Assembly (NCBI GenBank): GCA_964594925.1
Contig: CAZQOG010000002.1
Coordinates: 389-64,388, forward strand
Direction of reading: 5' to 3'
DNA: 64,000 bases
From: an uncultured Desulfohalobiaceae bacterium
GTDB lineage: Bacteria; Desulfobacterota; Desulfovibrionia; Desulfovibrionales; CAZUBS01
Shown one piece after another: positions 3,327-34,621 of this stretch; the first letter of the stretch is position 1; the number at the start of each line of letters is the position of its first letter. Below the pieces are notes generated by a model. It had not been told where the DNA came from, searched no databases, and worked only from the letters and a program-made list of their open reading frames with translations. Position numbers and translations under genes: made by a program.

Positions 3327-3331
3327 CGGGG

Positions 3332-4006: not shown

Positions 4007-4235
4007 GGGCGTTCCTTGGTAGAAAGGTTGCGCGCTGCAGGCATGGAGTTTCCCGCCAATCGCTTGAAGTGACTGAACAGTCATCCTACCAGACAAAGGC
4101 GGTGGCGATAAGAGGAAACCGGCCTGCCCCGCGGCTCGGGATCCTGGACAACCTGTCGCGGATATGGTGGTATAAAACGTTGAATCCGCCCTGTCCGGTC
4201 TGAGCCGGCAACCTTCAAGTCCGCGGGGTCCCGAC

Positions 4236-5759
4236 ATGAACGTGCTCCTGGTCTATCCCAGCTATCCCGACACCTTCTGGAGCTTCAAGACCGTCCTCAA
4301 GTACATCTCCAAAAAGGCGGCCTTCCCGCCTCTGGGCCTGCTCACGGTGGCGGCCATGCTGCCTCGGGAGTGGAACCTGCGGCTGGTGGATGTCAACGTG
4401 CGGGAGTTGACGGACCAGGACCTGGGCTGGGCGGACCTGGTCATGATCAGCGCCATGATCGTGCAGAAGGACTCTGTTCACGCGATCATCGATCGCTGCG
4501 GTGAGCTGGGCAGGAAGGTCGTGGCCGGAGGGCCGCTGTTCAACACCCGCTGGGAAAGCTTCCCGCAGGTGGACCACTTCGTGCTCGACGAGGCCGAGGT
4601 CACCCTGCCCCTGTTCCTGGAGGATATGGCCCGGGGCGCAGGCAAGCGGATCTACCGTTCGAGCCGGCGTCCGGACATCAACACGACCCCGATCCCGGCC
4701 TGGCACCTCATCGACATGGAGGACTACGCCACCATGTGCGTGCAGTACTCCAGGGGGTGCCCCTTCAACTGCGAGTTCTGCGACATCATCATCATGAACG
4801 GCCGGGTACCCCGCACCAAAAAACCGGAGCGCCTTCTGGCCGAGCTTGAGTCCCTGTACAGCGCGGGATGGCGTCGTGGCGTTTTCATCGTGGACGACAA
4901 CTTCATCGGCAACACAAACAAGGTCAAGGCCATGCTGCCCCACCTCATCGCCTGGCAGCAGGCCCGCGGCCACCCCTTTCAGTTTCTGACCGAGGCCTCC
5001 ACCAACCTGGCCGACGACGAGGAACTGATGTGGCTCATGAGCGCGGCCAACTTCCACAAGGTCTTCCTGGGCATCGAGACCCCGGAGGTGGAAAGTCTGC
5101 GGGAGTGCGGCAAGCTCCAGAACGCCTCCCGCGACCTGGTCGCGGCGGTGCGGGTCATCCAGAGGCACGGGATGCAGGTCATGGGCGGGTTTATCGTGGG
5201 GTTTGACAGCGACACCGAGTCCACCTTCGAGGCCCAGGTCAGGTTCATCCAGCAGGTGGGCATTGTCACGGCCATGGTGGGGGTGCTCAACGCCCTGCCG
5301 CAGACAAAGCTCTGGCACCGGATGCGGGCCGAGAACAGGCTGCTGGAGGAGGTGCCCGGCGGGGAGAACACAGCCGCCGAGATCAACTTCATCCCCCGCA
5401 TGGGCCGGGACAGGCTCCTGCAGGGGTACCGCAGCGTCATCGGCAGCATCTACTCCAGGCGCATGTATTACAAGCGGATCAATGTCTTTCTCGCGGACTA
5501 CGTGCCCACGGTCAGGGGCCGCTTCACCCGCCGGGACCTGCGGCCCCTGTTCCTGAGCATGGTGCGTATCGGGATCTTCTCACTGAGCAGCGCCTTCTAC
5601 TGGAAGCTGCTCGTCAAGACCCTGTTCACCAAGGCCCGGGCCCTGCCCGAGGTCATCGAGATGACCATAGTGGGGGAGCATTACCGCCGGATGCGCAAGC
5701 GCGTGCTGGCTGCAGGGAGGGACGGGCTGGAGGTGCCGTTGAAAGGCAGTGAGTCCTGA
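4236..5759 (+). CDS. B12-binding-domain radical SAM protein (DUF4070-type C-terminus)
   Basis: 507-aa ORF with an N-terminal B12-binding-like region (LGLLTVAAML...DLVMISAM). Radical-SAM cluster motif YSRGCPFNCEFCD (CxxxCxxC). Long C-terminal extension as in DUF4070 proteins. Confidence 0.85.
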   Translation: MNVLLVYPSYPDTFWSFKTVLKYISKKAAFPPLGLLTVAAMLPREWNLRLVDVNVRELTDQDLGWADLVMISAMIVQKDSVHAIIDRCGELGRKVVAGGPLFNTRWESFPQVDHFVLDEAEVTLPLFLEDMARGAGKRIYRSSRRPDINTTPIPAWHLIDMEDYATMCVQYSRGCPFNCEFCDIIIMNGRVPRTKKPERLLAELESLYSAGWRRGVFIVDDNFIGNTNKVKAMLPHLIAWQQARGHPFQFLTEASTNLADDEELMWLMSAANFHKVFLGIETPEVESLRECGKLQNASRDLVAAVRVIQRHGMQVMGGFIVGFDSDTESTFEAQVRFIQQVGIVTAMVGVLNALPQTKLWHRMRAENRLLEEVPGGENTAAEINFIPRMGRDRLLQGYRSVIGSIYSRRMYYKRINVFLADYVPTVRGRFTRRDLRPLFLSMVRIGIFSLSSAFYWKLLVKTLFTKARALPEVIEMTIVGEHYRRMRKRVLAAGRDGLEVPLKGSES

Positions 5760-8887: not shown

Positions 8888-10636
8888 CTAAGCTTCCCAC
8901 CCACGCTCCTGATAGTACTCGCTGAGCATGGTCTCCATCTCCTGCTCCGTAATGGTGTGCCCGGAGGGGAGCACCTCGCTGGTCAGGCGGCGGGGCAGGC
9001 GGTCCATGTCCGGGGTCAGCCCCTCGCGCAGATTGAAGCGCCTGGTTGCGTCCACTGTGCGTGCGGCTGTTTTTCGCAGCCCGGACGTGTCCAGGTCCTG
9101 CCCGGTGAGGAGTCGGACAAGTGAGGCCAGCTCCTCCCAGGGATAGAGGTCGCGGTAGAAACGGCACAGGATCAGGGAGTCGAACAGGCAGAGCCGGTCT
9201 TCGAAGTCCACGAGCATCGCGGCCTTGCCTTCGACCTGTTGCGGGGAGATCATTCCGGACAGCTCTGGCTTGTAGAAGGTGGTGCGCAGGTGGCAGGCGC
9301 CCCGGGGGCTGGTTCCGTAGGTCAGCCCCATGCCCTTGAGCACCCGCGGGTCGTACCCGGCAGGCTCCATGCCCTTGACGTGCACGGCCTGGTCGGACAT
9401 GCCCCACGAGGCAGCAGCCTGGACAATGCCCCCGGCCAGTACCGCACCCAATCCCTTGCGTCCGGCCATGTCCTTGATCAGGGCGGCGCACCCGTCAGGG
9501 TCATTGTACCCGGCAACAGGTTCGATCTTCCCCTGCAGCCCGGCTTCGATGGCCAGAGCGCACAGGTTGCCCGCGCTGATGGTGTCCAGCCCCAGCCGGT
9601 CGCACAGGTCGTTGAGCCAGGCGATCTCGGCCAGGTCGTCGATCATGCACAACCCGCCAAAGGCATAGATGGTTTCATACTCCGGGCCCTCTATGACCAG
9701 GCCCTTGTGCCGCCCGTGGCTGATCTCGGCCATGCGCCCGCAGGCCATGAAGCACTTCAGGCAGGCGTGGGGGCGCACCCGGTGCTCGGCGTGGTAGGTT
9801 TCCCCGGTCAGACGTTCCCAGTGGTCGCAGGTGCCCTGCTGCCAGTAGCGGGCCGGAAAGGCCTGGGCCGTGTTCATCAGGGCCACCATCATGGTGGTGC
9901 CAAAGCCTTTGTAGGCCTTGACTCCCGGGTTGTCCCGTCCCCGGGACGAAAACTCACGGGCGTACTCCTTGAGCCCGGCGGGGTCGGCAACGCTGCGCTT
10001 GCTGTCGCCGGCAAAGACCAGGGCCTTGAGCTGTTTTGCGCCCATGACGGCGCCGGTCCCGCCCCGGCCGGCACTGCGCCAGCGGTCGTTCTCGATGCAG
10101 GCGAAGACGACCCTGTTCTCCCCGGCCGGCCCGATGACCACCGCACCGGGCCGGCCAAAGCCGGGCCCGGAGGGTGCGAACCTGCGCACGGCCTCTGTTT
10201 CGGCTTCATAGGTCTCCATGCCCCACAGCGCAGTTGCGTCGTGAAAGTCGCACCCGTCGGGATGCACGGCCAGCACCGTGGGCCGCTCGGCAGATCCTGA
10301 GATGACCAGGGCATCGAACCCGGCAGCGTCCATGGCCTCGGGTGTTTTGCCCCCGGCATAGGACTCGGCATAGAGCCCGGTCTGGGGGGACTTGGTGTAG
10401 ACCCCGTAGCGGCTGCCGCCCCAGGCGGGCCCGTTGCAGGCGGGGCCGGTGGCGAAGATGAGCCGGTTCTCCGGGGCCAGCGGCTCCACCCCGGCGGGGT
10501 TGTGCTCGAGCAGCAGGTGCGTGGCCAGCCCCCTGCCTCCCAGCGTGGCCGACAGCAGCTCGTCGGACAGGGGCAGGATTTCGCAGCAGCGGCGGGTCAG
10601 GTCGACCGAGAGGTAGCGTCCGTAGAATCCGTGCAT
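8888..10636 (-). CDS. aor: aldehyde:ferredoxin oxidoreductase family (tungstopterin AOR-type)
   Basis: 582-aa ORF. AOR N-terminus MHGFYGRYLSVDLT...TLGGRGLATHLL...NRLIFATGP, plus later GLDTISAGN and CHLR blocks typical of the AOR family. Confidence 0.9.
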   Translation of the reverse strand: MHGFYGRYLSVDLTRRCCEILPLSDELLSATLGGRGLATHLLLEHNPAGVEPLAPENRLIFATGPACNGPAWGGSRYGVYTKSPQTGLYAESYAGGKTPEAMDAAGFDALVISGSAERPTVLAVHPDGCDFHDATALWGMETYEAETEAVRRFAPSGPGFGRPGAVVIGPAGENRVVFACIENDRWRSAGRGGTGAVMGAKQLKALVFAGDSKRSVADPAGLKEYAREFSSRGRDNPGVKAYKGFGTTMMVALMNTAQAFPARYWQQGTCDHWERLTGETYHAEHRVRPHACLKCFMACGRMAEISHGRHKGLVIEGPEYETIYAFGGLCMIDDLAEIAWLNDLCDRLGLDTISAGNLCALAIEAGLQGKIEPVAGYNDPDGCAALIKDMAGRKGLGAVLAGGIVQAAASWGMSDQAVHVKGMEPAGYDPRVLKGMGLTYGTSPRGACHLRTTFYKPELSGMISPQQVEGKAAMLVDFEDRLCLFDSLILCRFYRDLYPWEELASLVRLLTGQDLDTSGLRKTAARTVDATRRFNLREGLTPDMDRLPRRLTSEVLPSGHTITEQEMETMLSEYYQERGWEA

Positions 10637-10652
10637 GGGGAAACCTTGTTCA

Positions 10653-10885
10653 GTTCGAAGTTCGAAGTCGGAAGTTGGAAGGGAAGACCTCTAACACAAT
10701 GCCGCAACGTTGAGGAGATACTGTTGATTCAGTCCTTTCTTGTTCATCCTTTTCAACGGTTGTTTAAAAACCAAGTTTCAGGCCGAAAGTTCGAAGAAAT
10801 GAGAAAGTGCGTGCATTTTTCTTCATTGCTTAAAATGTCGTTTTGTCTTTCCCTTCCAGCTTCGAACTTCCGACTTCGAACTTTT
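10653..10885. repeat. inverted pair of GAAG-heptad arrays bracketing a 162-nt AT-rich spacer
   Basis: Left arm 10653-10686: gttcgaa gttcgaa gtcggaa gttggaa gggaag. Right arm 10849-10885 is the reverse-complement type (ttccagc ttcgaac ttccgac ttcgaac) and abuts the gabT stop (10888). Arms match at roughly 29 of 34 positions by unit-wise comparison. Confidence 0.85.
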
Positions 10886-10887
10886 AT

Positions 10888-12186
10888 CTAGCGCAAAGCG
10901 CTCAATCCGTCGCGCAGGATGGACAGGCCGCGTTCCAGCTCCTGATCGGTGATGACCAGGGGCATGAGGGTGCGGATGACGTTGCCGTAGGTGCCGCAGG
11001 ACAGGACGATCAGGCCGTGCTCGTGGCACCAGGCCACCAGCTGCTTGGCCGTGTCCGTGGCCGGCTTCTTTGTCTCGCGGTCCTGGACCAGCTCCAGGGC
11101 CAGCATGGGCCCCTTGCCGCGCACGTCTCCGATGACCTCGAACTCCTGCTGCAGAGCGGTGAAGCTTTGCAGCAGCCGTTCTCCAAGGTCCCGGGCCCGC
11201 TCCAGGAGACCGTCCCCCAGGAGAATATCCAGCACGGCCAGGGCGGCCCGGCAGGCCAGGGGGTTCCCGCCGTATGTTCCGCCCAGCCCCCCCACGTGGG
11301 GGGTGTCCATCATTGCGGCCCGCCCGATGACTCCGGACAGGGGAAGGCCCGCAGCCATGGACTTGGCCACGGTGACAAGGTCCGGGGCCACGTTCCAGTG
11401 CTCGATGGCAAAGAGGCTTCCGGTGCGTCCGAAACCGGTCTGGACCTCGTCGATGATCAGGGCGATGGCGTACTTGTCGCAGATGGCCTTGAGCCTGGCA
11501 AAGTACTCCGGCGGCGGGGTCGCAAACCCGCCTTCCCCCTGGATGGGCTCGGCCACCAGGGCCGCGGTCTGCTCGGCGGCCACGTGGGAGATGAAGAACT
11601 CCTCCAGGTAGTCGGCGCAGGCCACGTCGCACCCCGGGTAGGTCAGCCCGAAGGGGCAGCGGTAGCAGTAGGCGTAGGGCATGCGGTAGACCTCGGGCGC
11701 AAAGGGCCCGAACCCGAACTTGTAGGGCTTGACCTTGCTGGTCAGGCTCATGGTCAGCAGGGTCCTGCCGTGGAAACCGTTCTCGAAGCAGATCACGGCC
11801 GGCCTGCCGCTGACGTACCGGGCAACCTTGACCGCGTTCTCCACGGCCTCGGCACCCGAGTTCAAGAGCAGGGTCTGCTTGGGAAAGTCCCCGGGAGCCA
11901 GGCTGTTCAACCGCTCGGCCAGCTCCAGGTAGGGCTCGTACATCATGATGTGGAAGCAGGTATGCAGGAACTTGTCGGCCTGGTCCTTGACCGCCTCCAC
12001 GACCTTGGGGTGGCAGTGACCCACGTTGACCACCCCGATGCCTCCGGCGAAGTCGATGTACTCCTTGCCCTCGGTGTCGGTAATCACGGCCCCGCGGGCC
12101 TTGGCCGCAAAGGCTGGGACCACGTTGAACGGCCCTTTGGGGATATTGTCGGCACGTCGCCCGAGAAGGCTTTTGGTGTCGGACAT
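10888..12186 (-). CDS. gabT: 4-aminobutyrate aminotransferase-type class-III PLP aminotransferase
   Basis: 432-aa ORF with GAGGAG upstream. GFHGRT, DEVQTGFGRTGSLFAIEHWNVAPDLVTVAKSMAAG (Schiff-base Lys) and overall GabT-like length. Confidence 0.85.
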   Translation of the reverse strand: MSDTKSLLGRRADNIPKGPFNVVPAFAAKARGAVITDTEGKEYIDFAGGIGVVNVGHCHPKVVEAVKDQADKFLHTCFHIMMYEPYLELAERLNSLAPGDFPKQTLLLNSGAEAVENAVKVARYVSGRPAVICFENGFHGRTLLTMSLTSKVKPYKFGFGPFAPEVYRMPYAYCYRCPFGLTYPGCDVACADYLEEFFISHVAAEQTAALVAEPIQGEGGFATPPPEYFARLKAICDKYAIALIIDEVQTGFGRTGSLFAIEHWNVAPDLVTVAKSMAAGLPLSGVIGRAAMMDTPHVGGLGGTYGGNPLACRAALAVLDILLGDGLLERARDLGERLLQSFTALQQEFEVIGDVRGKGPMLALELVQDRETKKPATDTAKQLVAWCHEHGLIVLSCGTYGNVIRTLMPLVITDQELERGLSILRDGLSALR

Positions 12187-12207
12187 TATTTCAACTCCTC
12201 ACGTTTT

Positions 12208-12350
12208 CAAGTTCGAAGCAGCCGGCTGCGCCGGAGTTCGAAAGGGGAAGTTCGAAGTCGGAAGGAAAAGGCAGAACGGCGAGAACGCAAAATTCTTATA
12301 CTTTTTCTCCCTTCGAACTTCCGACTTCGAACTTCGAACTTCGAACTTTT
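12208..12350. repeat. inverted GAAG-heptad arrays between the thiolase and gabT genes
   Basis: Right arm 12309-12350 (ccttcgaac ttccgac ttcgaac ttcgaac ttcgaac tttt) includes the thiolase stop codon (12349-12351). Left arm 12245-12265 (ggggaag ttcgaag tcggaag g) contains an 18-nt perfect complement (gaagttcgaagtcggaag). There is also a small palindrome gcagccggctgc at 12218-12229. Confidence 0.85.
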
Positions 12351-13551
12351 ATACTCTTTCTATCACCGTGGCCACGCCCTGGCCGCCGCCGATGCAGGAG
12401 GCGGCGCAGCCGATGCTGCCGTTCTCGCTGTGCAGGATCCTGGCCAGGGTGCCCACCAGGCGGATGCCGGTGGCGCCCATGGCATGGCCCAGGGCCAGCC
12501 CCCCGCCCTTGACGTTGACCCGGTCCATGGGGATGCCGAGATCCGTGACCGCATTGAGCACCACCACGGCAAAGGCCTCGTTGATTTCCCAGAAATCAAT
12601 ATCCGAGGGCTTCAAACCGATTGCTTCCAAGGCCCTGCGGGCCGCGGGGACCGGAGCCAGCCCCATCAGGGTGGGGTCCACCCCGGCAAACCCGATGGAA
12701 CGGACCGTGGCCAGGGGGGAGATTCCCTTTTTCTCGGCGCTTTCACGGTCCATGAGCACCATGGCTGCGGCCCCCGAGTTGAGGGGGGAGGCATTGCCCG
12801 CGGTGATCCCGCCGTGGTCGGGGTCGAAAATGGTCTTCAGCCCGGCCATGCCCTCCAGGGTGGCGTTGTCTCGTACCGCCTGGTCGCGGTCCACGGTCAT
12901 CACGCTGCCGTCGGCCTGGGGCGCGTCCACCGGAATGATCTCCCCGTCAAAGTAGCCCTGCTCCCTGGCCCGGACAGCCAGCTGGTGGGAACGCACCCCC
13001 AGCTCGTCCATTTCCCGGCGGGTGAAGCCGGTCTGCTTCCAGAGCTTCTCCGCGGTTCTGCCCATGACCATGGTGGTGTCCATGTCCCAGTGGGCGTAGC
13101 GCTCCTCGGTGGACAGGGCGGGGTTCATGCTGATGCTGCCTTCCTTGAACAGCTTGGGTCCCATGGGGACCCTCGTCATCTGCTCCATGCCGCAGGCCAG
13201 CACGGTGTCGGCGAACCCGCCGGCAATCTCCAGGAAGGCGGTGTGCAGGGCGGCCATGCCCGAGCCGCACTGCATGTCCAGAAACTTGGCCGGGATGGAG
13301 GCGGGCAGGTTGGCCTGGAAGATGGGGGTGCGCCCGCCAAAGGTCCAGTTCTCGGTCACCCCCAGGGCGCAGCCCACCAGGAAGTCGTCCAATGACTCGG
13401 GGGCGACCCCGGCGCGGGCGAGCACCTCGGGGATGACGGCGGTCAGCAGCTCGTCAGCCCGCAGGGCGTGGAACCAGTCCCTTTCGGGCTCCTGGGGTCT
13501 GGCCCTGGACTGGGCCGTGCGGCCGTAACCGACAATGACAACGTCGCGCAT
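12349..13551 (-). CDS. acetyl-CoA C-acetyltransferase (thiolase II)
   Basis: ORF track 12349..13614, trimmed to ATG 13551 (AAGGAG 9 nt upstream; MRDVVIVGYGRT). C-terminal thiolase signature GLALGHAMGATG...CIGGGQGVATVIE. Confidence 0.9.
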   Translation of the reverse strand: MRDVVIVGYGRTAQSRARPQEPERDWFHALRADELLTAVIPEVLARAGVAPESLDDFLVGCALGVTENWTFGGRTPIFQANLPASIPAKFLDMQCGSGMAALHTAFLEIAGGFADTVLACGMEQMTRVPMGPKLFKEGSISMNPALSTEERYAHWDMDTTMVMGRTAEKLWKQTGFTRREMDELGVRSHQLAVRAREQGYFDGEIIPVDAPQADGSVMTVDRDQAVRDNATLEGMAGLKTIFDPDHGGITAGNASPLNSGAAAMVLMDRESAEKKGISPLATVRSIGFAGVDPTLMGLAPVPAARRALEAIGLKPSDIDFWEINEAFAVVVLNAVTDLGIPMDRVNVKGGGLALGHAMGATGIRLVGTLARILHSENGSIGCAASCIGGGQGVATVIERV

Positions 13552-13650
13552 GTCTAAAAAGCTCCTTGTTGCAGTGACTATGGGAAGATTTGTCTTTGTA
13601 GGGGCACGTTGCACGTGCCCTCTCCCAGTCCCGGCTTCACCACGACACCC

Positions 13651-14919
13651 TTACTCCACCACCCCGCACCAGCGAACAGCGAACAGGGCGTAGGCCCTGG
13701 CCGTGTGCAGGACCGAGTCAAGGCGGACCCGCTCGTCCGCCCCGTGGATGTTTTCGGCCACCGGCCCGTAGCAGCACCCCCGCGCCCGGCCAAAGGAGTA
13801 GAAGGCGCGCAGGTCGGTTGTGCAGGTGGAGACATAGCTGTCCGGTTCGTTGCCGGTCAGCTCGCGGTGACAGCCGGAGAGCACAACCAGTGGGGGGGCA
13901 TCCGGCTGTTCGACATGACCGTCGGAGCGGAACCCGTAGAACTCTACCTGCGGGGGGTTCTCCCGCAGCCACGGGTCCTGTTCGGCCGCCCGGGACACTG
14001 TCTCTGTTATGCGCGTGCGCATGGCGGCAAACGTGGTTCCGGGAAAATAGGAGAGCCGGCAGTGGAACTCTGCGTCGGCCGGGACAGTGGAAGGCCAGTC
14101 CCCTCCGTTGAGCATGCCCACATTGAGGTTGAGGGGGTGGTCAAAGCCCTCGTAGGGCGGGGGCAGGGGGGGCTGGTTCAACTCTTCTTCCAGCTCCCGG
14201 AGGGCCGTGATCAGGGGAAAGCACTTTTCCAGGGCGTTGGCGCCGGCCCCCGCTTCCAGCACGTGCACCGGCCGCCCCCCCACCCGGACCCTGAACCAGA
14301 GCACCCCCACCTGGGCGGTGTACAGCCGGGGGCCGAAGGGTTCGGGGATGAGCACGGCCCGGGCATCGACCCCGGCAGCCCGGCAGGCCAGGGCCCCGTT
14401 GCCCGAGCACTCCTCCTGGACGACCGCCTCCAGGGTCAGGGGGGCGGCCAGGCCGAAACCGGCCCTGCGGATGGCCGCGGCCGCATAGGTCATGGCCGCC
14501 ACACCCGACTTCATGTCGCCGGAGCCGCGTCCGTGCATCCAGCCGTCGCGCACCAGGGGGTCGAAGGGGTCACTGGACCACAGACGGGAAGGCTCGGGGC
14601 TGACCACGTCCAGGTGGCCGTTGAACAGGGCGCTGCGGCCGGTTGTCGCCCCTGGCTGGATCTCCGAGACCAGGCAGTGGGACGTGTGGGAGGCCAAAGG
14701 CATGGGCCCGTAGCCCGGATGAGCGTTCAAGGCGGCGTGGTCCACGGGGATGCGCCTGACCGGCAGGCCCAGCCGTTCGAGCTCCTCCTCCATGACCTGG
14801 AGGGTACCAGCCTCGTTGCCCACGGTGCTGGGCTCGGCCACCAGCCGGGCGGTGAAGTCGAAGATGTCCTCGGACAGGGCTTCAACAGCGGTGATGACGG
14901 CTTGCTCTCGTCGGTCCAT
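13651..14919 (-). CDS. M20-family ArgE/DapE-type deacylase (metallopeptidase)
   Basis: ORF track 13651..14949; start at ATG 14919 or 14949. LFNGHLDVVSP...WSSDPFDPLVRDGWMHGRGSGDMKSGVAA is the M20 ArgE/DapE metal-site pattern. Confidence 0.8.
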   Translation of the reverse strand: MDRREQAVITAVEALSEDIFDFTARLVAEPSTVGNEAGTLQVMEEELERLGLPVRRIPVDHAALNAHPGYGPMPLASHTSHCLVSEIQPGATTGRSALFNGHLDVVSPEPSRLWSSDPFDPLVRDGWMHGRGSGDMKSGVAAMTYAAAAIRRAGFGLAAPLTLEAVVQEECSGNGALACRAAGVDARAVLIPEPFGPRLYTAQVGVLWFRVRVGGRPVHVLEAGAGANALEKCFPLITALRELEEELNQPPLPPPYEGFDHPLNLNVGMLNGGDWPSTVPADAEFHCRLSYFPGTTFAAMRTRITETVSRAAEQDPWLRENPPQVEFYGFRSDGHVEQPDAPPLVVLSGCHRELTGNEPDSYVSTCTTDLRAFYSFGRARGCCYGPVAENIHGADERVRLDSVLHTARAYALFAVRWCGVVE

Positions 14920-14929
14920 GGTGCCTCTG

Positions 14930-15580
14930 TCAGAAGCGCGGGATCTCACCCGTGGGAACGGTCACCTCGGCCTCGGTCCTGCTGAGCATGTCCGCAAGGT
15001 CGGCTTCTTTGGCCAGCTCGCGCAGCACCAGGCCCTGTGGGGTCACGTCCAGCACTGCCAGCTCGGTGACAATGGTGGTCACGCATTTTTTAGCGGTGAC
15101 CGGCAGGGAGCAGCGTTTCAGGATCTTGGGACGCCCTTTGCCCGTGGTGTGGGTGGTGGTCACGATGACCTTGCGGGCCTTCTGGGCCAGCTCCATGCCC
15201 CCGCCGATGCCGGGCGCGAACCTGCCGGGGATGACCCAGTTGGCCAGGTCACCCCCCCCGCTGACCTCCAGGGTGCCCAGGATGGCCACGTCGAGCCGGC
15301 CGCCCCGGACCAGGGCAAAGGACAGGGCGGAGTCGAAAAAGGCGGCCCCGGGGCGCAGCTGCACGTAGTCACCCCCGGAGTCGATCAGGCATGGGTCCTC
15401 GGTCCCCCTCGGGCAGCGCGGCCCCATGCCCAGGATGCCGTTCTCGGAGTGGACAAAGATGTCCACCCCCGGGGGCAGATGCTGCAGGACGCGGGTGGGC
15501 AGGCCGATACCCAGGTTGACCACCTGGCCGGAGACAAGCTCGGCAGCGGTGCGCTGTGCGATCCTGGTCTTAGGCGACAT
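14930..15580 (-). CDS. 3-oxoacid CoA-transferase, subunit B
   Basis: MSPKTRIAQRTAAELVSGQVVNLGIGLPT is the subunit-B N-terminus. ATG 15580 overlaps the end of subunit A by 11 nt; TTG 15589 is an alternative start. Confidence 0.88.
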   Translation of the reverse strand: MSPKTRIAQRTAAELVSGQVVNLGIGLPTRVLQHLPPGVDIFVHSENGILGMGPRCPRGTEDPCLIDSGGDYVQLRPGAAFFDSALSFALVRGGRLDVAILGTLEVSGGGDLANWVIPGRFAPGIGGGMELAQKARKVIVTTTHTTGKGRPKILKRCSLPVTAKKCVTTIVTELAVLDVTPQGLVLRELAKEADLADMLSRTEAEVTVPTGEIPRF

Positions 15581-16265
15581 GGTTCTCAAGCACCTCGTAC
15601 TCTTTCATGCCGGTGGCCACGGGCACGACATGGTCCACAAAAGCGCCGGGGGTGTGGATGTGGTCAGGGTCGAGCTCGCCGATGTCCACGATCTCCCGCG
15701 CTTCAGCCACCACGAGGTCCGCGGCCGTGGCCATGAGGGGGTTGAAGTTGCGGGCTGTCTTTTCGAAGATCAGGTTGCCCCAGCGGTCGGCCCTGGCCGC
15801 ATGCACAAGGGCCACCTCGGCCCGCAGAGCCGGCTCCACTATGTAGCGGCGCCCCCTGAAGGAGGTTGTTTCCCGCTGCTCGGCCAGGATCGTCTCCAGC
15901 CCGATGTCCGTGAGAAAGGCGGCCAGGCCCGCCCCACCGGCTCTGATCTTTTCGGCCAGGATGCCCTGGGGGTGCATTTCCACCTCCAGCCGGCCCTGGT
16001 TCATCATCTCGATGGCCAGGGCGTTGAGGCCCATGTGCGAGACGATGAACCGCTTGGCGCGGCCGGCCTCGAACAAGGTGGATATGCCCATGCCCTGCTC
16101 GTTGGCGTCGTTCTTGATCAGGGTCAGCCCTGCTGCACCCTGCTCCAGCAGGGCGGCAATGAGCGTGAAGGGGGTGCCTGGGGCGCCGAACCCCCCGATC
16201 ATGACGCGTGAGCAGTGGGCCACGGTGCGCAGTGCCCCGGCAGGGGTGGTGGTCTTGTCGATCAT
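15570..16265 (-). CDS. 3-oxoacid CoA-transferase, subunit A
   Basis: 231-aa ORF. VMIGGFGAPGTPFTLIAALLEQGAAGLTLIKNDAN is typical of family-I CoA-transferase subunit A. ATGA overlap with the upstream fusion gene. Confidence 0.88.
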   Translation of the reverse strand: MIDKTTTPAGALRTVAHCSRVMIGGFGAPGTPFTLIAALLEQGAAGLTLIKNDANEQGMGISTLFEAGRAKRFIVSHMGLNALAIEMMNQGRLEVEMHPQGILAEKIRAGGAGLAAFLTDIGLETILAEQRETTSFRGRRYIVEPALRAEVALVHAARADRWGNLIFEKTARNFNPLMATAADLVVAEAREIVDIGELDPDHIHTPGAFVDHVVPVATGMKEYEVLENHVA

Positions 16266-18601
16266 CCGTGCCTCTTCATGGTGCCCGGGGTGCGCAGCCC
16301 CGGGGTGGGGAAGGCCGGATCCAGGGCCTCCACGCCGGCATCGGCCAGGTAGCGGCTGGTTCTCTTCAAGGCCCGCTCCAGCTTGTCCAGCAGCTCGCCG
16401 ATCTGCTTCTCATTGATAATCAGCGGCGGGGCCACCAGCACGTGGTCGCCGAACAGGCCATTGATCGAGCGGCGGGGGTAGATGATCAACCCCTCCTCAA
16501 AGGCGTTGTCTGTGAGCACCATGGCCGCGTTCCACTCCGGTGGGAAGGGGTCGCGGGTCGCTGTGTCGCGCACCAGCTCAATCGCGGTCAAAAGCCCCAG
16601 GCCGCGGACGTTGCCGATGATGCTGTACCGGTCTTGCAGCTGCTCCAGGCCGTGCAGCAGGACCTTGCCCATGGCTGCGGCGTTCTCCGGCAGCTGCTCC
16701 TCCAGGATGATGTTCAGCACCTCCAGACCTACGGTGCAGGCCATGGGGTTGCCCGCGTAGGTGTGTCCGTGGGCGAATCCTCCACGGGAGACCACGGCAT
16801 TGACGATCTCCTGGGAGGTCAGAACCGCCCCCAGGGGGTAGTAGCCCGAGGCAATGCCCTTGGACAGGGCGATGATGTCCGCCTCCACCCCCCAGTGCTC
16901 GTAGGCGAACAGCCTGCCGGTGCGCCCGAACCCGGTCATGACCTCGTCCAGGATGAGCAGCACGCCGTATTTGCGGCAGATGTGCTGGATGACCGCGAAG
17001 TACTCCTTGGGGGGCACCAGGGCGCCGGTGCTGGCCCCGCCCACCGGCTCGGTCACGAAAGCGGCCACGTTGTCCGGACCTTGCTCCAGGATGACCCGCT
17101 CCAGGGCCCAGGCGCACTCCAGGCCGCAGTCCGGGTAGGTCTGGTGGTAGACGCAGCGGTAGCAGTAGGGAGCGGGAATCTTGGGGTAGTCGCGCACCAG
17201 GGGTTTGAAGGCCACCTCCAGGGGGGCGTAGGATGTCAGGGCCAGGGCGCCGAGGGTGGCTCCGTGGTAGGAGGGGACCCGGCTGATGAACTTGTAGCGT
17301 GAGCCCTCCCCCAGGTTGAAAAAGTACTGGCGGCAGACCTTCATGGCCGACTCCACCGCCTCAGAGCCTCCAGAGACGTAGAAGACCTTGTTCAGGTGCG
17401 GGGAGGTATGCTGGACCAGCTTCTTTGCCAGACGCTTGGAAGGCTCGTTCTCGAACTGGGTGCGGTAGGCGAAGAAGGTCCGCTGGGCCTGCTGCTCCAT
17501 GGCCGCAATGACCCGCTTGTCGCCGTGCCCGATGTTGTTGACCACCGCCCCTGAAGAGCCGTCCAGGTACCGTTTCCCCACGGTGTCCCACATGTAGATG
17601 CCCTTGGACTTGGCAATGGTGGGCTGGCGTTTCTTGGTCTGGTAGAAAAGAAACTGCTCCTGGTCGGGGTAGGCGGCCAGCTCTGCGGGGTGGACCTTGA
17701 ACAGCTCGGGGTTTGAGGCGTGGAAGCGGTTGAGCTTTTCCACGGGTGTGAGGCGGCCCAGGCTGCGCAGGGGGATGTGGGTGTTGTACACGTAGCAGTA
17801 GGAGAGCAGCTTCTTTTCCAGCTCCTCGCTGGAGGCGAAGGGGGAGTAGGCCAGCTCAGAGAGCCCTGACAGGAGCTGGGACTCACCGGGCGCGGGGTCC
17901 GGGTAGACGTGCTGCTCTATGGAAAGCTCCCGGCAGGCAGCGGCAAAAAAATGGTCGTGGTCGGATCCTTCCGAAGTGAAGGCTGGGCGGTCGGCAGTGA
18001 GCACGCGCCAGATGCAAAAAGGGGCGGCCTGGCTCAGGTTGCGCAGAAACCCGGCGGCCGAGTCCGGTGAGCCATCCGGCCGGGTTTCCATGAAGATCCA
18101 GCTGGTGGCCCGGTCAACCGACAGAAAAAGGTGCTTGCGGAAGGTCTCGTCCTGCATGCGGGGCAGGGAGCGTTCGTAGAGGCGCATGTGTCCCGGCAGG
18201 TACCGCTGGTGTTTGCGGACAACCGCCTTGTGCTCCTCGATGTCCGGGACCAGCTCGCCCACGCGGCACACCCCGTGGCGGCGCAGCAGCCTGTCCAGTG
18301 AGGACCGTGAGCAGGAGGGCATGAGAAAGGTCCGGACCACGGTGAGCAGGTCGTCAAGGGACAAGAGCAGGATGCGGCGGATCTCGACGATGAGCAGCTC
18401 CTGCTCCAGCGTGAACAGCACGCTGGAGTGGGCAGTGCAGTCCCGGGTCTGGACCTTTCCGGCCCGGCTGCGCCATTTGCGGACGGTTGCGATGCTCAGC
18501 CCCAGCTCGTTGGCCAGCTCGGCCACGGAGTCAGTGGACTCCTGAATATATCTGCCGATCTCGGGAGTGACAGTGATCTTCCAGTTCTTTCTCAGCCCCA
18601 T
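16262..18601 (-). CDS. fusion protein: degenerate IS481-type transposase (HTH + rve-like, DDE lost) N-domain + complete class-III aminotransferase C-domain
   Basis: Single 779-codon ORF. Residues 1 to about 301 (nt 17699-18601) are transposase-like; residues about 315-779 are aminotransferase (GSEAVESAMK, YHGATLGALALT, DEVMTGFGRTGRLFAYEHWGVEADIIALSKGIASG). See the finding at 16262-18601. Confidence 0.8.
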   Translation of the reverse strand: MGLRKNWKITVTPEIGRYIQESTDSVAELANELGLSIATVRKWRSRAGKVQTRDCTAHSSVLFTLEQELLIVEIRRILLLSLDDLLTVVRTFLMPSCSRSSLDRLLRRHGVCRVGELVPDIEEHKAVVRKHQRYLPGHMRLYERSLPRMQDETFRKHLFLSVDRATSWIFMETRPDGSPDSAAGFLRNLSQAAPFCIWRVLTADRPAFTSEGSDHDHFFAAACRELSIEQHVYPDPAPGESQLLSGLSELAYSPFASSEELEKKLLSYCYVYNTHIPLRSLGRLTPVEKLNRFHASNPELFKVHPAELAAYPDQEQFLFYQTKKRQPTIAKSKGIYMWDTVGKRYLDGSSGAVVNNIGHGDKRVIAAMEQQAQRTFFAYRTQFENEPSKRLAKKLVQHTSPHLNKVFYVSGGSEAVESAMKVCRQYFFNLGEGSRYKFISRVPSYHGATLGALALTSYAPLEVAFKPLVRDYPKIPAPYCYRCVYHQTYPDCGLECAWALERVILEQGPDNVAAFVTEPVGGASTGALVPPKEYFAVIQHICRKYGVLLILDEVMTGFGRTGRLFAYEHWGVEADIIALSKGIASGYYPLGAVLTSQEIVNAVVSRGGFAHGHTYAGNPMACTVGLEVLNIILEEQLPENAAAMGKVLLHGLEQLQDRYSIIGNVRGLGLLTAIELVRDTATRDPFPPEWNAAMVLTDNAFEEGLIIYPRRSINGLFGDHVLVAPPLIINEKQIGELLDKLERALKRTSRYLADAGVEALDPAFPTPGLRTPGTMKRHG

Positions 18602-18938
18602 GTCAGTGCTCCGGTCTGAATCGAGGATACATCACGCGCACCCAGGCCGGTTTTTTGCGGCCGGGTCTGGCGTGCCGGCCTTTGACCTCTTCCCCCCTGG
18701 CGGGATGATGCCTCACACCCAGGCCCGGGGAGGTGCACGGGCAAACCATTTCAGTATAAAGGGAACAGGCGCAAAAAGAAAGACACACCCGGTCTTTGAT
18801 GCATGGCCGGGTTCGTATCACACCCGGTATGCCCCGGCATGCATAGGATGTTTTACACACTGTTGCAACGTGCATCTGGCCGGTACCATTCCTTGAGTAA
18901 GGATGTATTGGGAGGCAGTGGTGCACACTGCCAACGGC

Positions 18939-18967
18939 TTGACAAATGAAAACCCGCCCCATACCAT
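18939..18967 (+). promoter_or_regulatory. candidate sigma70-type promoter for the ABC-transporter operon
   Basis: TTGACA (18939-18944), 17-nt spacer, TACCAT (18962-18967), about 100 nt upstream of ATG 19068. A 7-bp inverted repeat ggcagtg-N5-cactgcc sits just upstream at 18914-18932. Consensus match only. Confidence 0.35.
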
Positions 18968-19067
18968 CCGCGAATCTGAGTAAAGATGCGCAGTAATCGG
19001 GTTTTGAGAACAGTTGTCAAATGATTGAAGTGCTGTGCCCTGATACACACAAAGCCCCACGCAAGCC

Positions 19068-19931
19068 ATGTCTGAAAAATCGGGCTGGAAACCCTGGGCA
19101 CTGTTGGCCCCCTCCCTGAGCGCGGTCTTCTTCCTGCTGGTCGTCCCGGTCTGCTTTATCATAGTCTACAGTTTCTGGCTCCGCGCTCCAAGCGGTGCGG
19201 ACATCCCGGCCTTCCAGTTCGGAAACTACGCCAAGTTCTTCCAGGACTTCTTCTACTCCTCCATTTTGCTGCGCACCATCAGGGTCAGCCTGGAGTGCGT
19301 GGCCCTGTGCCTGGTCATGGGGTACATCCCCGCATATTTCTTCTACCGCACCCGGACCCGTTTCCGGGGGGTGCTCATGCTGCTGATCATGCTCCCGTTC
19401 TGGATCAGCTTCATCATCCGCACCCTGTCCTGGATCAACATTTTGGGGGACACCGGCCTGATCAACTACGTGCTGACCAGCACCGGAATCCTCTCCGAAC
19501 CGCTGGGCATGCTCTACAACGAGGGCGCGGTGCTCATGGGGCTGATCCAGTACCTGCTGCCCTTCATGATTTTGAACATCTACGTCAGCCTGGAAGGCAT
19601 CGACAAAAGCCTGCTCGAGGCGGCCCGGTCCATGGGCTGCACCGAGTGGCAGGCCTTCAAGGAGGTCACCCTGCCCCTGTCCCTGCCCGGGGTCAGCGCC
19701 GGCAGCCTGCTGGTCTTCGTGCTCACCGCGGGCACCTACCTGCCGCCCATGATCCTCGGCGGGCCGGGCAACGAGATGATCGCCAACCTGATCTTCAAGC
19801 GGGTCATCGGAACCCTGGACTGGCCGTTCGGGTCTGCCATCAGCGTTGTGCTGCTGCTGCTCGTGGGGACCATCGTCTGGACCTACAACCGTTACCTGGG
19901 CATCAACCAGGTCTTCAAGGCCATGCAATAG
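19068..19931 (+). CDS. ABC transporter permease, PotB/spermidine-putrescine type
   Basis: 287-aa ORF with 6 predicted hydrophobic segments. EAA-loop-like LEAARSMGCTEWQAFKEVTLPLSLPG. Confidence 0.85.
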   Translation: MSEKSGWKPWALLAPSLSAVFFLLVVPVCFIIVYSFWLRAPSGADIPAFQFGNYAKFFQDFFYSSILLRTIRVSLECVALCLVMGYIPAYFFYRTRTRFRGVLMLLIMLPFWISFIIRTLSWINILGDTGLINYVLTSTGILSEPLGMLYNEGAVLMGLIQYLLPFMILNIYVSLEGIDKSLLEAARSMGCTEWQAFKEVTLPLSLPGVSAGSLLVFVLTAGTYLPPMILGGPGNEMIANLIFKRVIGTLDWPFGSAISVVLLLLVGTIVWTYNRYLGINQVFKAMQ

Positions 19932-19938
19932 GGAAAGA

Positions 19939-20730
19939 ATGGTGCGGATTTCCGGCTGGTCACTCATCAAGCTCTACACCATCCTGGTGTACGTGTTCAT
20001 GTTCGCCCCCATCGTGGTGGTGATCATCCTGGCCTTCAACCCGCAGCAGTTCGGCTCTTTTCCCATGGACGGATTCAGCCTGCGCTGGTTCGTCAAGCTG
20101 GCCCAGAACGAGGTCATCCTCATGGCCTTCAAGAACTCCCTGGTCCTGGGCAGCCTGACCGCTGTCTGCACCACCCTTGTGGCCATACCCGCGGCCATGG
20201 CCTTTGTGCGCTACGAGTTCCCGGGAAAAAACAGCCTGAACACCCTGCTGCTGGCCCCGATCATGGTGCCCGAAGTCATCCTGGGCGTGGCCCTGCTGCT
20301 GTTCATCCGCTGGCTGCAGCAACCCAAAAGCTTTGCCCTCTTGCTCGTCGGCCACGTGGTCATCACCCTGCCGTATGTCCTTCTCGTGGTGCAGGCCAGG
20401 CTGGTGGGCATCAGGACCGACTATGAGGAAGCTGCCAAATCCCTGGGCGCCAACGCCTTTCAGACCTTTCGGGAGATCACCCTGCCCCTGCTTCTCCCAG
20501 CCATCTTCGCCGGCATGCTCTTCTCCTTCACCATCTCCTTTGACGACATCACGGCCACGTTGTTCTGGGCAACGGCCCAGAACCAGACGGTGCCGGTCAA
20601 GATATTCGGCATGCTGCGCAACTCCATCAGCCCGGAGATCAACGCCCTGGGCGCGGTCATGATCGTGCTCACGGTGTCAACGCCCCTTCTGGCCGGTTAT
20701 CTGGCCAGGCGTTTCGCCAGGGGAAAGTGA
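19939..20730 (+). CDS. ABC transporter permease, PotC type
   Basis: ORF track 19846..20730, trimmed to ATG 19939 (MVRISGWSLIKLYTILVYVFMFAPIVVVIILAFN). EAAKSLGANAFQTFREITLPLLLPA. Confidence 0.85.
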   Translation: MVRISGWSLIKLYTILVYVFMFAPIVVVIILAFNPQQFGSFPMDGFSLRWFVKLAQNEVILMAFKNSLVLGSLTAVCTTLVAIPAAMAFVRYEFPGKNSLNTLLLAPIMVPEVILGVALLLFIRWLQQPKSFALLLVGHVVITLPYVLLVVQARLVGIRTDYEEAAKSLGANAFQTFREITLPLLLPAIFAGMLFSFTISFDDITATLFWATAQNQTVPVKIFGMLRNSISPEINALGAVMIVLTVSTPLLAGYLARRFARGK

Positions 20731-20799
20731 AACCCGGCCGAAAGACCCGGCCATTTTTCAGGGCGGGGGGATCCCTGCTCAAAACTCAAGGAGGACGAG

Positions 20800-21957: not shown

Positions 21958-22081
21958 CAATCAGTTGAAAAATCCCGGCTGGCTTCGTTGCTGCGGCCAG
22001 GTCAAACCCTCACGTATATGGTATACGCTTCGGACTTGACCAGGCCTTGCGCCTCGCCAGCCAGGTTTTTGAACTGATTGC
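21957..22081. repeat. 125-nt near-perfect long palindrome (extended hairpin) starting in the stop codon of the binding-protein gene
   Basis: Nested complementary blocks: gcaatcagttgaaaaa/tttttgaactgattgc (15 of 16), cccggctggc/gccagccagg (9 of 10), ggccaggtcaa/ttgaccaggcc (10 of 11). Apical stem cgtata-tgg-tatacg (6 of 6). Confidence 0.85.
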
Positions 22082-22099
22082 AATCCGCCCTGCGGGCGA

Positions 22100-22220
22100 G
22101 TTCGAAGTTCGAAGCTCGAAGCTGAGAGCAAGGGAAAGAAAAGAAGCTGAAGCAAGGCTTCAGCAGTATTGCCTCCGGCCGGCCGGTCCTATCGGTCCTA
22201 CAGTGACGGCCGGCCGGAGG
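22100..22220. repeat. GAAG heptads followed by two further hairpins in the same intergenic region
   Basis: Heptads gttcgaa gttcgaa gctcgaa gctgaga (22100-22127). 8-bp stem gctgaagc/gcttcagc (22146-22164). 14-bp GC stem cctccggccggccg/cggccggccggagg (22172-22220) whose loop holds two nonamer-type units, gtcctatcg gtcctacag. Confidence 0.85.
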
Positions 22221-22273
22221 CTTCACCACAGCGCTGTCCGGCAGCACAGCATGTAACGCGAAGAGGAACACCA

Positions 22274-26089: not shown

Positions 26090-26119
26090 AGGCCCCGGCA
26101 GAACCACGAGGTGTCCGTC

Positions 26120-31820: not shown

Positions 31821-31841
31821 ACCTCGCGCGAGCAGCGCGCG

Positions 31842-34604: not shown

Positions 34605-34621
34605 AAGCGTTCCCTCCCCAA

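Follow-up and report, generated by a model that had tools for sequence, protein, structure and literature searches.

Which compound is broken down by a gene cluster that combines two aminotransferases with an aldehyde:ferredoxin oxidoreductase (AOR), and whether its genes serve one pathway at all, is the question raised by a stretch of 64,000 nucleotides (nt) from an uncultured Desulfohalobiaceae bacterium (assembly GCA_964594925.1, contig CAZQOG010000002.1, positions 389 to 64,388 of the forward strand), which as a whole is referred to as the window. A preceding sequence-only reading had described six genes of the window, i.e., those for the coenzyme A (CoA)-transferase subunits A and B, an M20 ArgE/DapE-type deacylase, a thiolase, GabT and the AOR, as an oxygen-independent operon for the catabolism of either amines or beta-amino acids. 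The answer put forward here, with a confidence that falls slightly short of even, is that of a two-module anaerobic catabolic cluster of a halophilic sulfate reducer, which would do without NAD-linked aldehyde dehydrogenases and for which N6-acetyl-beta-lysine or beta-lysine would be the best-fitting substrate.

Organization and conservation of the cluster

All six genes were found to be real open reading frames (ORFs) with exactly the limits assigned to them before, whereby position 8888 is the AOR stop and position 16265 the CoA-transferase A start, and each of the six family names was borne out by Pfam and NCBIfam (Table 1). The GC content of their third codon positions amounts to 0.85-0.89 in all six ORFs, and the codon-position GC pattern is that of real genes in a window and genome of 65% GC. 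The genes are co-directional as described, with the correction that they are encoded on the minus strand. Their characterization as tightly packed or overlapping holds for the fusion gene, both CoA-transferase genes and the M20 gene, but not for the thiolase-GabT and GabT-AOR junctions, which are occupied by inverted-repeat elements. The stop of the fusion gene overlaps the CoA-transferase A gene by 4 nt, the two CoA-transferase genes either share an 11-nt overlap or, with another choice of start codon, are separated by a short gap, and a gap of about 99 nt separates the M20 and thiolase genes when start codons are set as implied by orthologue lengths. As the aminotransferase half of the fusion gene (16262-17656) lies within the conserved unit described below, the cluster comprises seven genes. 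A scan for terminators and promoters performed no better than on shuffled sequence, hence co-transcription is neither supported nor refuted by it.

To place the cluster in a comparative context, 80 species-level loci around M20 orthologues were collected from a genome collection and all proteins of the window were mapped onto them, with position counts being restricted to loci possessing enough flank to judge; single loci are denoted by L numbers. The order fusion aminotransferase, CoA-transferase A, CoA-transferase B, M20, thiolase, GabT and AOR recurs identically in a Desulfovibrionales metagenome-assembled genome (MAG; L001) and in Paucidesulfovibrio longus (L002), where the enzymes share 69-82% identity with those of the window and the flanks on the AOR side are unrelated. 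Immediately upstream of M20, CoA-transferase B was identified in 52 of 73 loci, while CoA-transferase A (46 of 66) and the omega-transaminase (30 of 44) likewise locate upstream and the thiolase downstream (35 of 67); GabT is present in 16 of the 34 fully assessable loci. The core, consisting of omega-transaminase, CoA-transferase A/B, M20 and thiolase, recurs in about 50 species of Desulfobacterota as well as on plasmids of alphaproteobacteria. Carriers of the cluster include P. longus DSM 6739, Desulfofustis glycolicus DSM 9705 and Desulfosediminicola flagellatus. Considering the identical order in L001 and L002 and the occurrence of the core in dozens of species, the arrangement is far beyond chance. 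The orthologues are hence syntenic rather than scattered, and the comparison of gene neighbourhoods upholds the earlier view of a conserved, co-directional catabolic cluster.

Three architectures of the related loci can be distinguished. In type I, a PotABCD-like transporter, a proline-racemase-family gene and an Amidohydro_3 gene accompany the core, often together with an ornithine aminotransferase, sometimes with GabT-AOR and often with a second M20-type hydrolase; in many genomes (L017, L048, L059, L066) this forms one co-linear single-strand operon from transporter to thiolase, and two divergent operons are found in the window. Type II loci start with an IclR or sigma-54 regulator, followed by the transaminase, a polar-amino-acid ATP-binding cassette (ABC) transporter, the core and sometimes GabT-AOR, with glutamate dehydrogenase coming next in Desulfofustis glycolicus. 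For the type II binding protein (SBP_bac_3), the closest match is 3vv5 (E 4e-47), a Lys/Arg/Orn binder of Thermus. Type III loci (L067, L068) possess a sigma-54 regulator, GabT, M20, a Liv-type ABC transporter, a YgeY-like M20 and AOR, and lack CoA-transferase and thiolase; as GabT, M20 and AOR are retained there, these three form a separate unit. The core is also carried by plasmids of Rhodobacteraceae M382 and Rhizobium sp. C104, and in the M382 operon, the transaminase of which is 52% identical, it is combined with a Lys/Arg/Orn-type transporter, an M20D hydrolase and an alanine-racemase-like gene. The term oxygen-independent is consequently appropriate for the AOR add-on, which alone is specific to anaerobes, but not for the core, which is also found in aerobic alphaproteobacteria. 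On pSymA of Sinorhizobium meliloti strain ml46 (L165, 6400-9284), the CoA-transferase A/B genes upstream of an intact M20 homologue are frameshifted into several short ORFs, apparently as part of an ongoing decay of the cluster in this strain. In L005 (4678-5529), a creatininase-family cyclic amidohydrolase resides within the transporter part of a type II cluster, where it may stand in for the Amidohydro_3 of other loci, e.g., in the opening of a lactam or cyclic amide.

The enzymes of the core

Residues 316-779 of the fusion protein form a complete class-III aminotransferase of 464 residues (Aminotran_3, E 3.6e-102). Its closest NCBIfam models are PRK06917 and PRK07483, both under their cut-offs, and its best solved structures are omega/amine:pyruvate transaminases; with SpuC-type polyamine:pyruvate transaminases it scores 268-271 bits, which is about level with other omega-transaminases. 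HemL models were absent from its 25 best NCBIfam matches, as was any HemL-like beta-transaminase from its 60 best solved structures. The enzyme is thus best described as a predicted pyruvate-type omega-transaminase and as the putative first enzyme of the conserved core. The preceding residues 1-315 (17657-18601, minus strand) gave only sub-threshold matches to HTH_Tnp_1 and rve_3 and are probably a degenerate transposase-like helix-turn-helix plus integrase-core remnant. The fused form is confined to the Desulfovibrionales loci, i.e., the window, L001, L002 and L004, among which the N-terminal domain shares 55-59% identity, while the transaminase stands alone elsewhere; the domain may have been domesticated for DNA binding or regulation.

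Both CoA-transferase subunits pass the Family I 3-oxoacid (ScoAB/PcaIJ/AtoDA) cut-offs, and the subunit B translation contains the SENG motif (HSENGILGMGP), whose glutamate is the catalytic one. In the thiolase translation, the motifs for the nucleophilic cysteine and the C-terminal His/Cys are present (QCGSGM, GHAMGATG, CIGGGQG), and the FadA model outscores the PhaA model. The M20 orthologues share about 60% identity throughout the Desulfobacterota, and the metal ligands H102, D135, E169/E170 and H392 are invariant among 20 orthologues. The best solved structure for M20 is 3pfo, the function of which is not known, and the protein scores under the cut-off of every specific ArgE or DapE equivalog model, so that the family does not define its substrate. 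For GabT, the first 12 solved-structure matches are all 4-aminobutyrate (GABA) transaminases of the GabT or PuuE kind, headed by E. coli GabT (E 2e-129).

AOR and the GabT-AOR pair

AOR residues 1-581 align with residues 1-586 of Pyrococcus furiosus AOR (1AOR; E 3.5e-100), whereby CLKCFMAC corresponds to CYACPIGC, DRLGLDTIS to DELGLDTIS, DSLILC to DSAGLC and GACH to GGCH, while GPEYE is kept. The CxxCxxxC...C ligands of the [4Fe-4S] cluster, the DxxGLD pterin motif and the Glu/His pair are retained in this alignment, the roles of these residues presumably being those established for 1AOR. The protein is hence a predicted member of the (tungstopterin) AOR family, whose metal and electron acceptor are not readable from sequence. 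Genes for a tungstate transporter or a dedicated ferredoxin were not seen in the window, the rest of which likewise showed none for tungsten, molybdopterin or nickel-pincer biosynthesis. The nearest homologues of AOR, from a Desulfovibrionales MAG (74%) and P. longus (73%), both reside within the same cluster.

At an identity of at least 50%, AOR was identified in 13 of 82 loci and in six of the 34 full loci. GabT directly followed by AOR was found in eight loci including the window, with the pair being placed downstream of the thiolase in L001, L002, L005 and L052 and upstream of the transaminase in L055, L066 and L080. Elsewhere AOR follows straight after the thiolase (L021, L037, L050) or closes the type III operons. 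The pair thus moves as a unit between operon positions, which is good comparative evidence that AOR acts on the GabT product. In L052, a glutamate dehydrogenase gene directly follows AOR, which fits transaminase-coupled deamination. Using a PROSITE-pattern test rather than a hidden Markov model, neither the window nor any of the 82 loci yielded an ORF with both aldehyde-dehydrogenase signatures. The earlier statement that AOR is the sole aldehyde-oxidizing enzyme of the cluster is in line with this result, which extends it to the related loci.

Proposed reaction sequence and substrate

While the gene families, their conserved synteny and modularity and the lack of aldehyde dehydrogenase signatures were observed directly, the sequence of the reactions and the nature of the substrate are inferred. 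The general two-module mechanism is considered moderately likely. Module 1 would consist of the omega-transaminase, the 3-oxoacid CoA-transferase A/B and the thiolase. Here, a beta-amino acid would initially be transaminated to the 3-oxoacid, which the CoA-transferase would convert into its CoA ester; subsequent thiolysis would yield acetyl-CoA and an acyl-CoA shortened by two carbons, the CoA of which might be recycled by the transferase onto the next 3-oxoacid. Transamination most likely precedes CoA transfer because the transaminase is of the pyruvate-type omega class and the transferase of the 3-oxoacid type, and because Kat, the 3-aminobutyryl-CoA aminotransferase discussed below, differs. 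Module 2 would comprise M20, GabT and AOR, whereby M20 would release an omega-amino acid from its N-acyl form, GabT would generate the semialdehyde and AOR would oxidize the latter to the dicarboxylate, with ferredoxin receiving the electrons. The sequence-only reading had recognized the gene logic for activating a beta-amino acid in the combination of CoA-transferase, class-III aminotransferase and thiolase, with M20 implying an acylated substrate, and precisely this set turned out to be the conserved core. It had further offered amine and beta-amino-acid degradation as alternatives; both are retained in part, as they are better taken as two modules of one cluster.

A substrate that would make use of every enzyme is N6-acetyl-beta-lysine, or beta-lysine or lysine following aminomutase and acetylation steps. 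The transaminase would convert N6-acetyl-beta-lysine into 6-acetamido-3-oxohexanoate, the CoA-transferase would form the CoA ester thereof, and thiolysis would give acetyl-CoA and 4-acetamidobutyryl-CoA, hence 4-acetamidobutyrate. M20 would then liberate GABA and acetate, GabT would form succinic semialdehyde and AOR would oxidize it to succinate. The core-linked transporters are of the cationic-amine or basic-amino-acid type (PotD-like or Lys/Arg/Orn-like), and together with the frequent presence of GabT they point to a beta,omega-diamino acid with GABA as its C2-shortened product, i.e., beta-lysine, while M20, being constantly present, speaks for an acylated form. The family Desulfohalobiaceae is halophilic, and N-acetyl-beta-lysine is an osmolyte of methanogens in such habitats. 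An Rfam scan identified no riboswitch (e.g., for lysine or glycine) that would name the substrate, the only match in the window being a tRNA gene.

Genes for the formation of the proposed substrate were found beside the core in few loci. In a Geopsychrobacter MAG (L025), ablA (TIGR03820, 778 bits) and ablB (TIGR03827, 325 bits), both far above their equivalog cut-offs, abut the thiolase gene in convergent orientation; ablA and ablB are the genes for N-epsilon-acetyl-beta-lysine synthesis. On the Rhizobium sp. C104 plasmid (L167), an AblA_like_2 aminomutase (556 bits versus a cut-off of 396) and a GNAT gene flank CoA-transferase, M20 and thiolase, and in P. longus a KamA-family gene is located 8.7 kb from AOR. 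KamA-family genes (L002, 20469-21758, and the rhizobial plasmids L169 and L170) are moreover repeatedly paired with ATP-grasp ligase genes, and the rhizobial ones also travel with GNAT, M81 peptidase and class-III aminotransferase genes; this pairing hints at the synthesis or turnover of a beta-amino-acid amide compound.

The divergent operon

Upstream of the fusion gene, and separated from it by a region with presumed promoters, an operon of opposite orientation encodes a transporter, a racemase and two further enzymes (Table 1). The nearest structures of the transporter's SBP_bac_8 protein are binders of putrescine, polyamines or GABA, while permease and ATPase are closest to PotB and PotA. 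The transporter is co-linear with the core in L016, L017, L028, L032, L042, L048 and L059 and divergent from it in L002. Its two permeases (19068-20730) show 76-92% identity across orders (L002, L016, L028, L032, L042, L048, L082), including a Spirochaeta MAG, compared with 55-65% for the neighbouring enzymes, so that the transporter may be under unusually strong constraint or may have been acquired horizontally in recent times. The racemase has true proline racemases as nearest structures and both catalytic cysteines in its translation, and it is linked to the core in L016, L017, L048, L059, L066 and L078. Only uncharacterized structures match the Amidohydro_3 hydrolase, which is linked to the core in L017, L024, L028, L048, L055, L059, L066, L078 and L080.

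The last gene of the operon encodes a putative ornithine cyclodeaminase of the recently described type that depends on the nickel-pincer nucleotide. It is not conserved with the cluster elsewhere, where a RocD-type ornithine aminotransferase takes the same position (L017, L055, L080), and was therefore not used to define the pathway. A gene for a NicO-type nickel transporter (37890-38966, minus strand) lies 11 kb away from it, and no LarB, LarC or LarE genes were seen in the window.

Weighing the scheme and its alternatives

Several findings weigh against the scheme as applied to beta-lysine. Each of its steps rests on sequence comparison, and the transaminase scores under every NCBIfam equivalog cut-off, so that its substrate is not assignable in this way. 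The link to aminomutase or acetyltransferase genes is given by two to three of more than 85 loci, the window itself contains neither gene, and a survey in the reverse direction, which covered 79 metagenome loci centred on AblB relatives (one of them 84% identical), turned up no case of a neighbouring core. The pathway of Pseudomonas reportedly used a cleavage enzyme with acetyl-CoA and not a CoA-transferase and thiolase. An AOR of 66% identity in Fundidesulfovibrio putealis resides beside an iron alcohol dehydrogenase and a Liv-type transporter, i.e., in an unrelated operon; this AOR clade is therefore regarded as a generalist module recruited to different operons, and the substrate proposed for AOR consequently derives from its neighbour and not from its own sequence. 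Furthermore, the scheme has no role for racemase, Amidohydro_3 and an ornithine-consuming enzyme, which many genomes encode in one operon with the core, and no scheme that was constructed uses all genes for one molecule. As these three travel with the PotD-like transporter, ornithine or proline is suggested to be an intermediate as well, or else a second substrate to be processed, and AOR could equally oxidize glutamate semialdehyde in that upper module. Given the three loci among more than 85, the missing aminomutase gene in the window and the negative reverse survey, the mechanism was graded as above, while it is considered rather unlikely that the cluster specifically represents the genes for beta-lysine/N-epsilon-acetyl-beta-lysine catabolism in an anaerobic version, in which CoA-transferase and thiolase would bring about the C2 cleavage and a tungsten-type AOR would replace succinic semialdehyde dehydrogenase.

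The polyamine/GABA-type degradation suggested by the sequence-only reading would start with the import of putrescine or N-acetylputrescine by the PotD-like transporter, whereupon the omega-transaminase would form (N-acetyl-)4-aminobutanal for oxidation by AOR, M20 would deacetylate 4-acetamidobutyrate to GABA, and GabT and AOR would complete the route to succinate, with CoA-transferase and thiolase only feeding products into central metabolism. The affinities of binding protein, permease and ATPase are as this route would require, the SpuC-type score of the transaminase is compatible with it, and the triad of GabT, M20 and AOR does exist alone. Yet the most conserved adjacency of all, that of transaminase, CoA-transferase, M20 and thiolase, is left unexplained, the aldehyde oxidizer needed at the second step is missing from most core loci, which have neither AOR nor aldehyde dehydrogenase, and many core loci possess a Lys/Arg/Orn-type transporter instead. 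No Puu/Spu genes (glutamine-synthetase-like, amidotransferase-like or aldehyde dehydrogenase) were found in the cluster or the related loci. The polyamine route is deemed unlikely. In a route via ornithine and proline, hydrolases would free ornithine, which cyclodeaminase or ornithine aminotransferase and racemase would turn into D-proline; following reduction of the latter elsewhere, GabT and AOR would convert 5-aminovalerate into glutarate, the CoA-transferase would form glutaryl-CoA, and decarboxylation and beta-oxidation would lead to acetoacetyl-CoA to be split by the thiolase. A racemase of the true proline type is at hand, the cyclodeaminase or its RocD-type counterpart occurs in the same operons, and GabT-type enzymes commonly accept 5-aminovalerate. 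However, D-proline reductase, glutaryl-CoA dehydrogenase, crotonase and hydroxyacyl-CoA dehydrogenase are absent among the recurrent neighbour families, the position of the transaminase directly before the CoA-transferase finds no explanation, and loci with the Lys/Arg/Orn-type transporter have the core without racemase or hydrolase, which makes this route distinctly improbable.

As an example of beta-amino-acid activation, the sequence-only reading had named a route resembling the tail of lysine fermentation, in which 3-aminobutyrate would be converted to 3-aminobutyryl-CoA, transaminated as thioester to acetoacetyl-CoA and split by the thiolase. A class-III aminotransferase, AtoDA and a thiolase are indeed joined in a characterized pathway, the variant lysine fermentation with its 3-aminobutyryl-CoA aminotransferase Kat (Perret et al. 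2011, PMC3149608). Kat is, however, glutamate-1-semialdehyde-aminomutase-like, and it did not transform free 3-aminobutyrate, beta-homoleucine or beta-phenylalanine, from which the thioester moiety was concluded to be necessary for recognition (PMC3149608). The enzyme of the window groups with the omega-transaminases of the pyruvate type and has no HemL-type match among its best hits, and its partner transferase is of the 3-oxoacid type. As kamA, kamD/E, kdd and kce are found neither nearby nor among the recurrent neighbours, and M20, GabT and AOR would be left without a role, the example was dropped as highly improbable. Finally, the genes might form no single pathway but an island of independent amine and osmolyte functions, to which AOR would have been added by chance in this lineage as a general scavenger of aldehydes. 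This would account for the modular architecture, the three transporter types and the variable accessory hydrolases, for the AOR homologue in the operon with the iron alcohol dehydrogenase, for AOR being present in 13 of 82 loci only and for the hairpin insertions that part GabT and AOR from the rest in the window. What it leaves out of account is the GabT-AOR adjacency in eight loci and two arrangements, the closing of GabT-M20 operons by AOR, the occurrence of AOR in six of 34 full loci as against about 2% expected per 20-kb window by our estimate, and the strict co-linearity of single-strand operons from transporter to thiolase (L048, L059, L017, L066); the island is thus judged to be a poor candidate. 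Routes for ectoine, hydantoin/pyrimidine, carnosine, cyanophycin dipeptide, opine, spermidine and homotaurine were considered and rejected, as none of them accounts for both the CoA-transferase/thiolase pair and the M20-GabT link.

Further features of the window

The inverted repeats between thiolase, GabT and AOR are long and imperfect, with arms like TTCGAAGTCGGAAGTTCGAAG. Within the window, 10 matches to the repeat were obtained, compared with none in shuffled sequence, and three further intergenic sites are occupied by it. The orthologous gaps of L001 and L002 measure only 9-55 nt and are free of such elements. The family is of the repetitive extragenic palindrome/miniature inverted-repeat transposable element (REP/MITE)-like kind, forms very stable hairpins and is inserted inside operons; in the cluster, one copy precedes GabT and another AOR, which sets both apart from the other genes. 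The tRNA gene (34677-34748, minus strand) and the longest threonyl-tRNA synthetase ORF (32667-34718, minus strand) overlap at the 5' end of the latter, so that the true start of thrS must be located further downstream. The region 825-5759 encodes an amidase, a flavin mononucleotide-dependent alpha-hydroxy-acid dehydrogenase, a spermine-synthase-like methyltransferase fold and a B12-binding radical S-adenosylmethionine protein (DUF4070), for which no relation to the cluster was found.

Table 1. Positions in the window and supporting matches of the cluster genes, the repeat elements and the divergent operon (scores are given against the model cut-off).
Feature	Position	Strand	Matches and remarks
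AOR-family aldehyde:ferredoxin oxidoreductase	8888-10636	minus	single subunit, 582 aa; AFOR_N PF02730 E 1.2e-66, AFOR_C PF01314 E 2.3e-109
Inverted-repeat element	10637-10887		between GabT and AOR, 251 nt; RNA fold -75.6 kcal/mol, z -4.3
GabT, 4-aminobutyrate (omega-amino acid):2-oxoglutarate transaminase	10888-12186	minus	TIGR00700 578.9 bits vs 506.65
Inverted-repeat element (REP/MITE-like hairpin)	12187-12348		between thiolase and GabT, 162 nt; RNA fold -66.8 kcal/mol, z -5.3
Degradative-type thiolase (acetyl-CoA C-acyltransferase)	12349-13551	minus	Thiolase_N, Thiolase_C; NF005033 530.8 bits vs 511
M20 ArgE/DapE-family deacylase, PRK06837 subfamily	13651-14919	minus	Peptidase_M20 (PF01546), M20_dimer (PF07687); NF005306 455.4 bits vs 376
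CoA-transferase B	14930-15580	minus	TIGR02428 267.7 bits vs 243.55
CoA-transferase A	15570-16265	minus	CoA_trans; TIGR02429 226.2 bits vs 128.5
Fusion gene	16262-18601	minus	779 aa; N-terminal 1-315 transposase-like, 316-779 class-III omega-transaminase
Divergent intergenic region, enzyme vs transporter operon	18602-19067		presumed promoters; weak sigma-70-like matches; no Rfam element
PotABCD-like ABC transporter	19068-23392	plus	two permeases, SBP_bac_8 binding protein with twin-arginine translocation (Tat) signal, ATPase
Proline-racemase-family enzyme, Cys/Cys type	23436-24464	plus	Pro_racemase E 3.7e-101
Amidohydro_3 (YtcJ-like) metal hydrolase	24461-26089	plus	only uncharacterized structures match; overlaps racemase gene by 4 nt
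Putative nickel-pincer-cofactor ornithine cyclodeaminase	26111-27217	plus	NF052526 566 bits vs 440
Further repeat sites	about 22101-22121, 31720-31822, 43771-43971		intergenic

Significance

Each enzyme of the cluster is an ordinary member of a known family. What is out of the ordinary is the conserved unit of transaminase, CoA-transferase, M20 and thiolase, of which no description was found, the use of GabT-AOR in place of GabT-GabD, and the possible assignment of genes to an orphan pathway. A search of the accessible literature on AOR with GABA or succinic semialdehyde returned nothing relevant, with the GabT-AOR pairing not found described, and the Pelobacter genome paper contains nothing on the cluster. 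If the scheme holds true, strict anaerobes would clear the aldehydes formed by transaminases via a ferredoxin-linked AOR, thereby gaining low-potential electrons useful for sulfate reduction, and a widespread, hitherto unannotated operon would be defined in dozens of Desulfobacterota and some alphaproteobacteria. Candidate genes would moreover become available for a decades-old orphan pathway of beta-lysine degradation and for several orphan activities, namely N6-acetyl-beta-lysine transaminase and 4-acetamidobutyrate/4-acetamidobutyryl-CoA deacetylase, and a trophic link in saline sediments would emerge, with methanogens releasing their main osmolyte and halophilic sulfate reducers living on it. 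Independently of the substrate proposed for the cluster, a testable prediction on the substrate range of AOR follows from its conserved pairing with GabT.

Comparison with known systems

The closest chemical precedent is the L-beta-lysine pathway of Pseudomonas B4, whose sequence of steps the proposed route reproduces and which was reported by the Barker laboratory around 1979-81 to lead from N6-acetyl-beta-lysine via 3-keto-6-acetamidohexanoate to a 4-acetamidobutyryl unit, GABA, succinic semialdehyde and succinate. The enzymes reportedly involved are N6-acetyl-beta-lysine transaminase, a 3-keto-6-acetamidohexanoate cleavage enzyme, 4-acetamidobutyryl-CoA deacetylase, GABA transaminase and succinic semialdehyde dehydrogenase, the Enzyme Commission (EC) numbers being 2.6.1.65, 3.5.1.51 and 3.5.1.63. 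To our knowledge, the genes of this pathway were never identified, so that no sequence comparison is possible, and we know of no sequences assigned to the transaminase and 4-acetamidobutyryl deacetylase activities; the literature search retrieved the intermediates only as database compound names in metabolomics papers. In the window, 16262-17656 is a candidate for the N6-acetyl-beta-lysine transaminase gene and 13651-14919 for that of the 4-acetamidobutyryl deacetylase. Chemically, both systems require a beta-transaminase, the shortening of a 3-oxoacid by C2 to a C4 acetamido unit, the deacetylation thereof, a GABA transaminase distinct from the first one and the oxidation of succinic semialdehyde. 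Aminomutase and acetyltransferase genes stand beside the core in L025 and L167, but not in the window. The cluster differs in employing CoA-transferase and thiolase for the C2 removal and a ferredoxin-linked AOR instead of an NAD(P) dehydrogenase, and in its strictly anaerobic host.

With the system of Kat, AtoDA and thiolase, the cluster shares a class-III aminotransferase acting at a beta-amino group, a two-subunit CoA-transferase, a thiolase and the anaerobic background, whereas its transaminase is omega-transaminase-like, kamDE, kdd and kce are missing and M20, GabT and AOR have no counterpart there. ScoAB/AtoDA with AtoB, which serve acetoacetate utilization, and PcaIJ-PcaF, which serve that of 3-oxoadipate, resemble it in that its subunits pass the pcaI_scoA and pcaJ_scoB cut-offs and a thiolase follows; unlike in these systems, M20 is always placed between transferase and thiolase, a transaminase stands ahead, and by score the thiolase is closer to FadA than to PhaA or PcaF. 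The Puu/Spu systems of polyamine catabolism are alike only in the type of transporter and in possessing a generic omega-transaminase.

For the second module, GabT-GabD/PuuE of E. coli and other bacteria provides the obvious parallel, as GabT is matched at the level of an orthologue and is followed by an enzyme able to oxidize a semialdehyde, with an AOR-family enzyme taking the place of the NAD(P) succinic semialdehyde dehydrogenase. AOR enzymes in anaerobic amino-acid catabolism are represented by that of P. furiosus and by that of Aromatoleum aromaticum, which functions in phenylalanine degradation. The AOR of the window belongs to the same family, has all cofactor motifs and would likewise act as a low-potential aldehyde oxidizer following the removal of an amino group. 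Points of difference are its single-subunit type without adjacent AorA/AorC-like genes and its partner, a transaminase of the GABA type.

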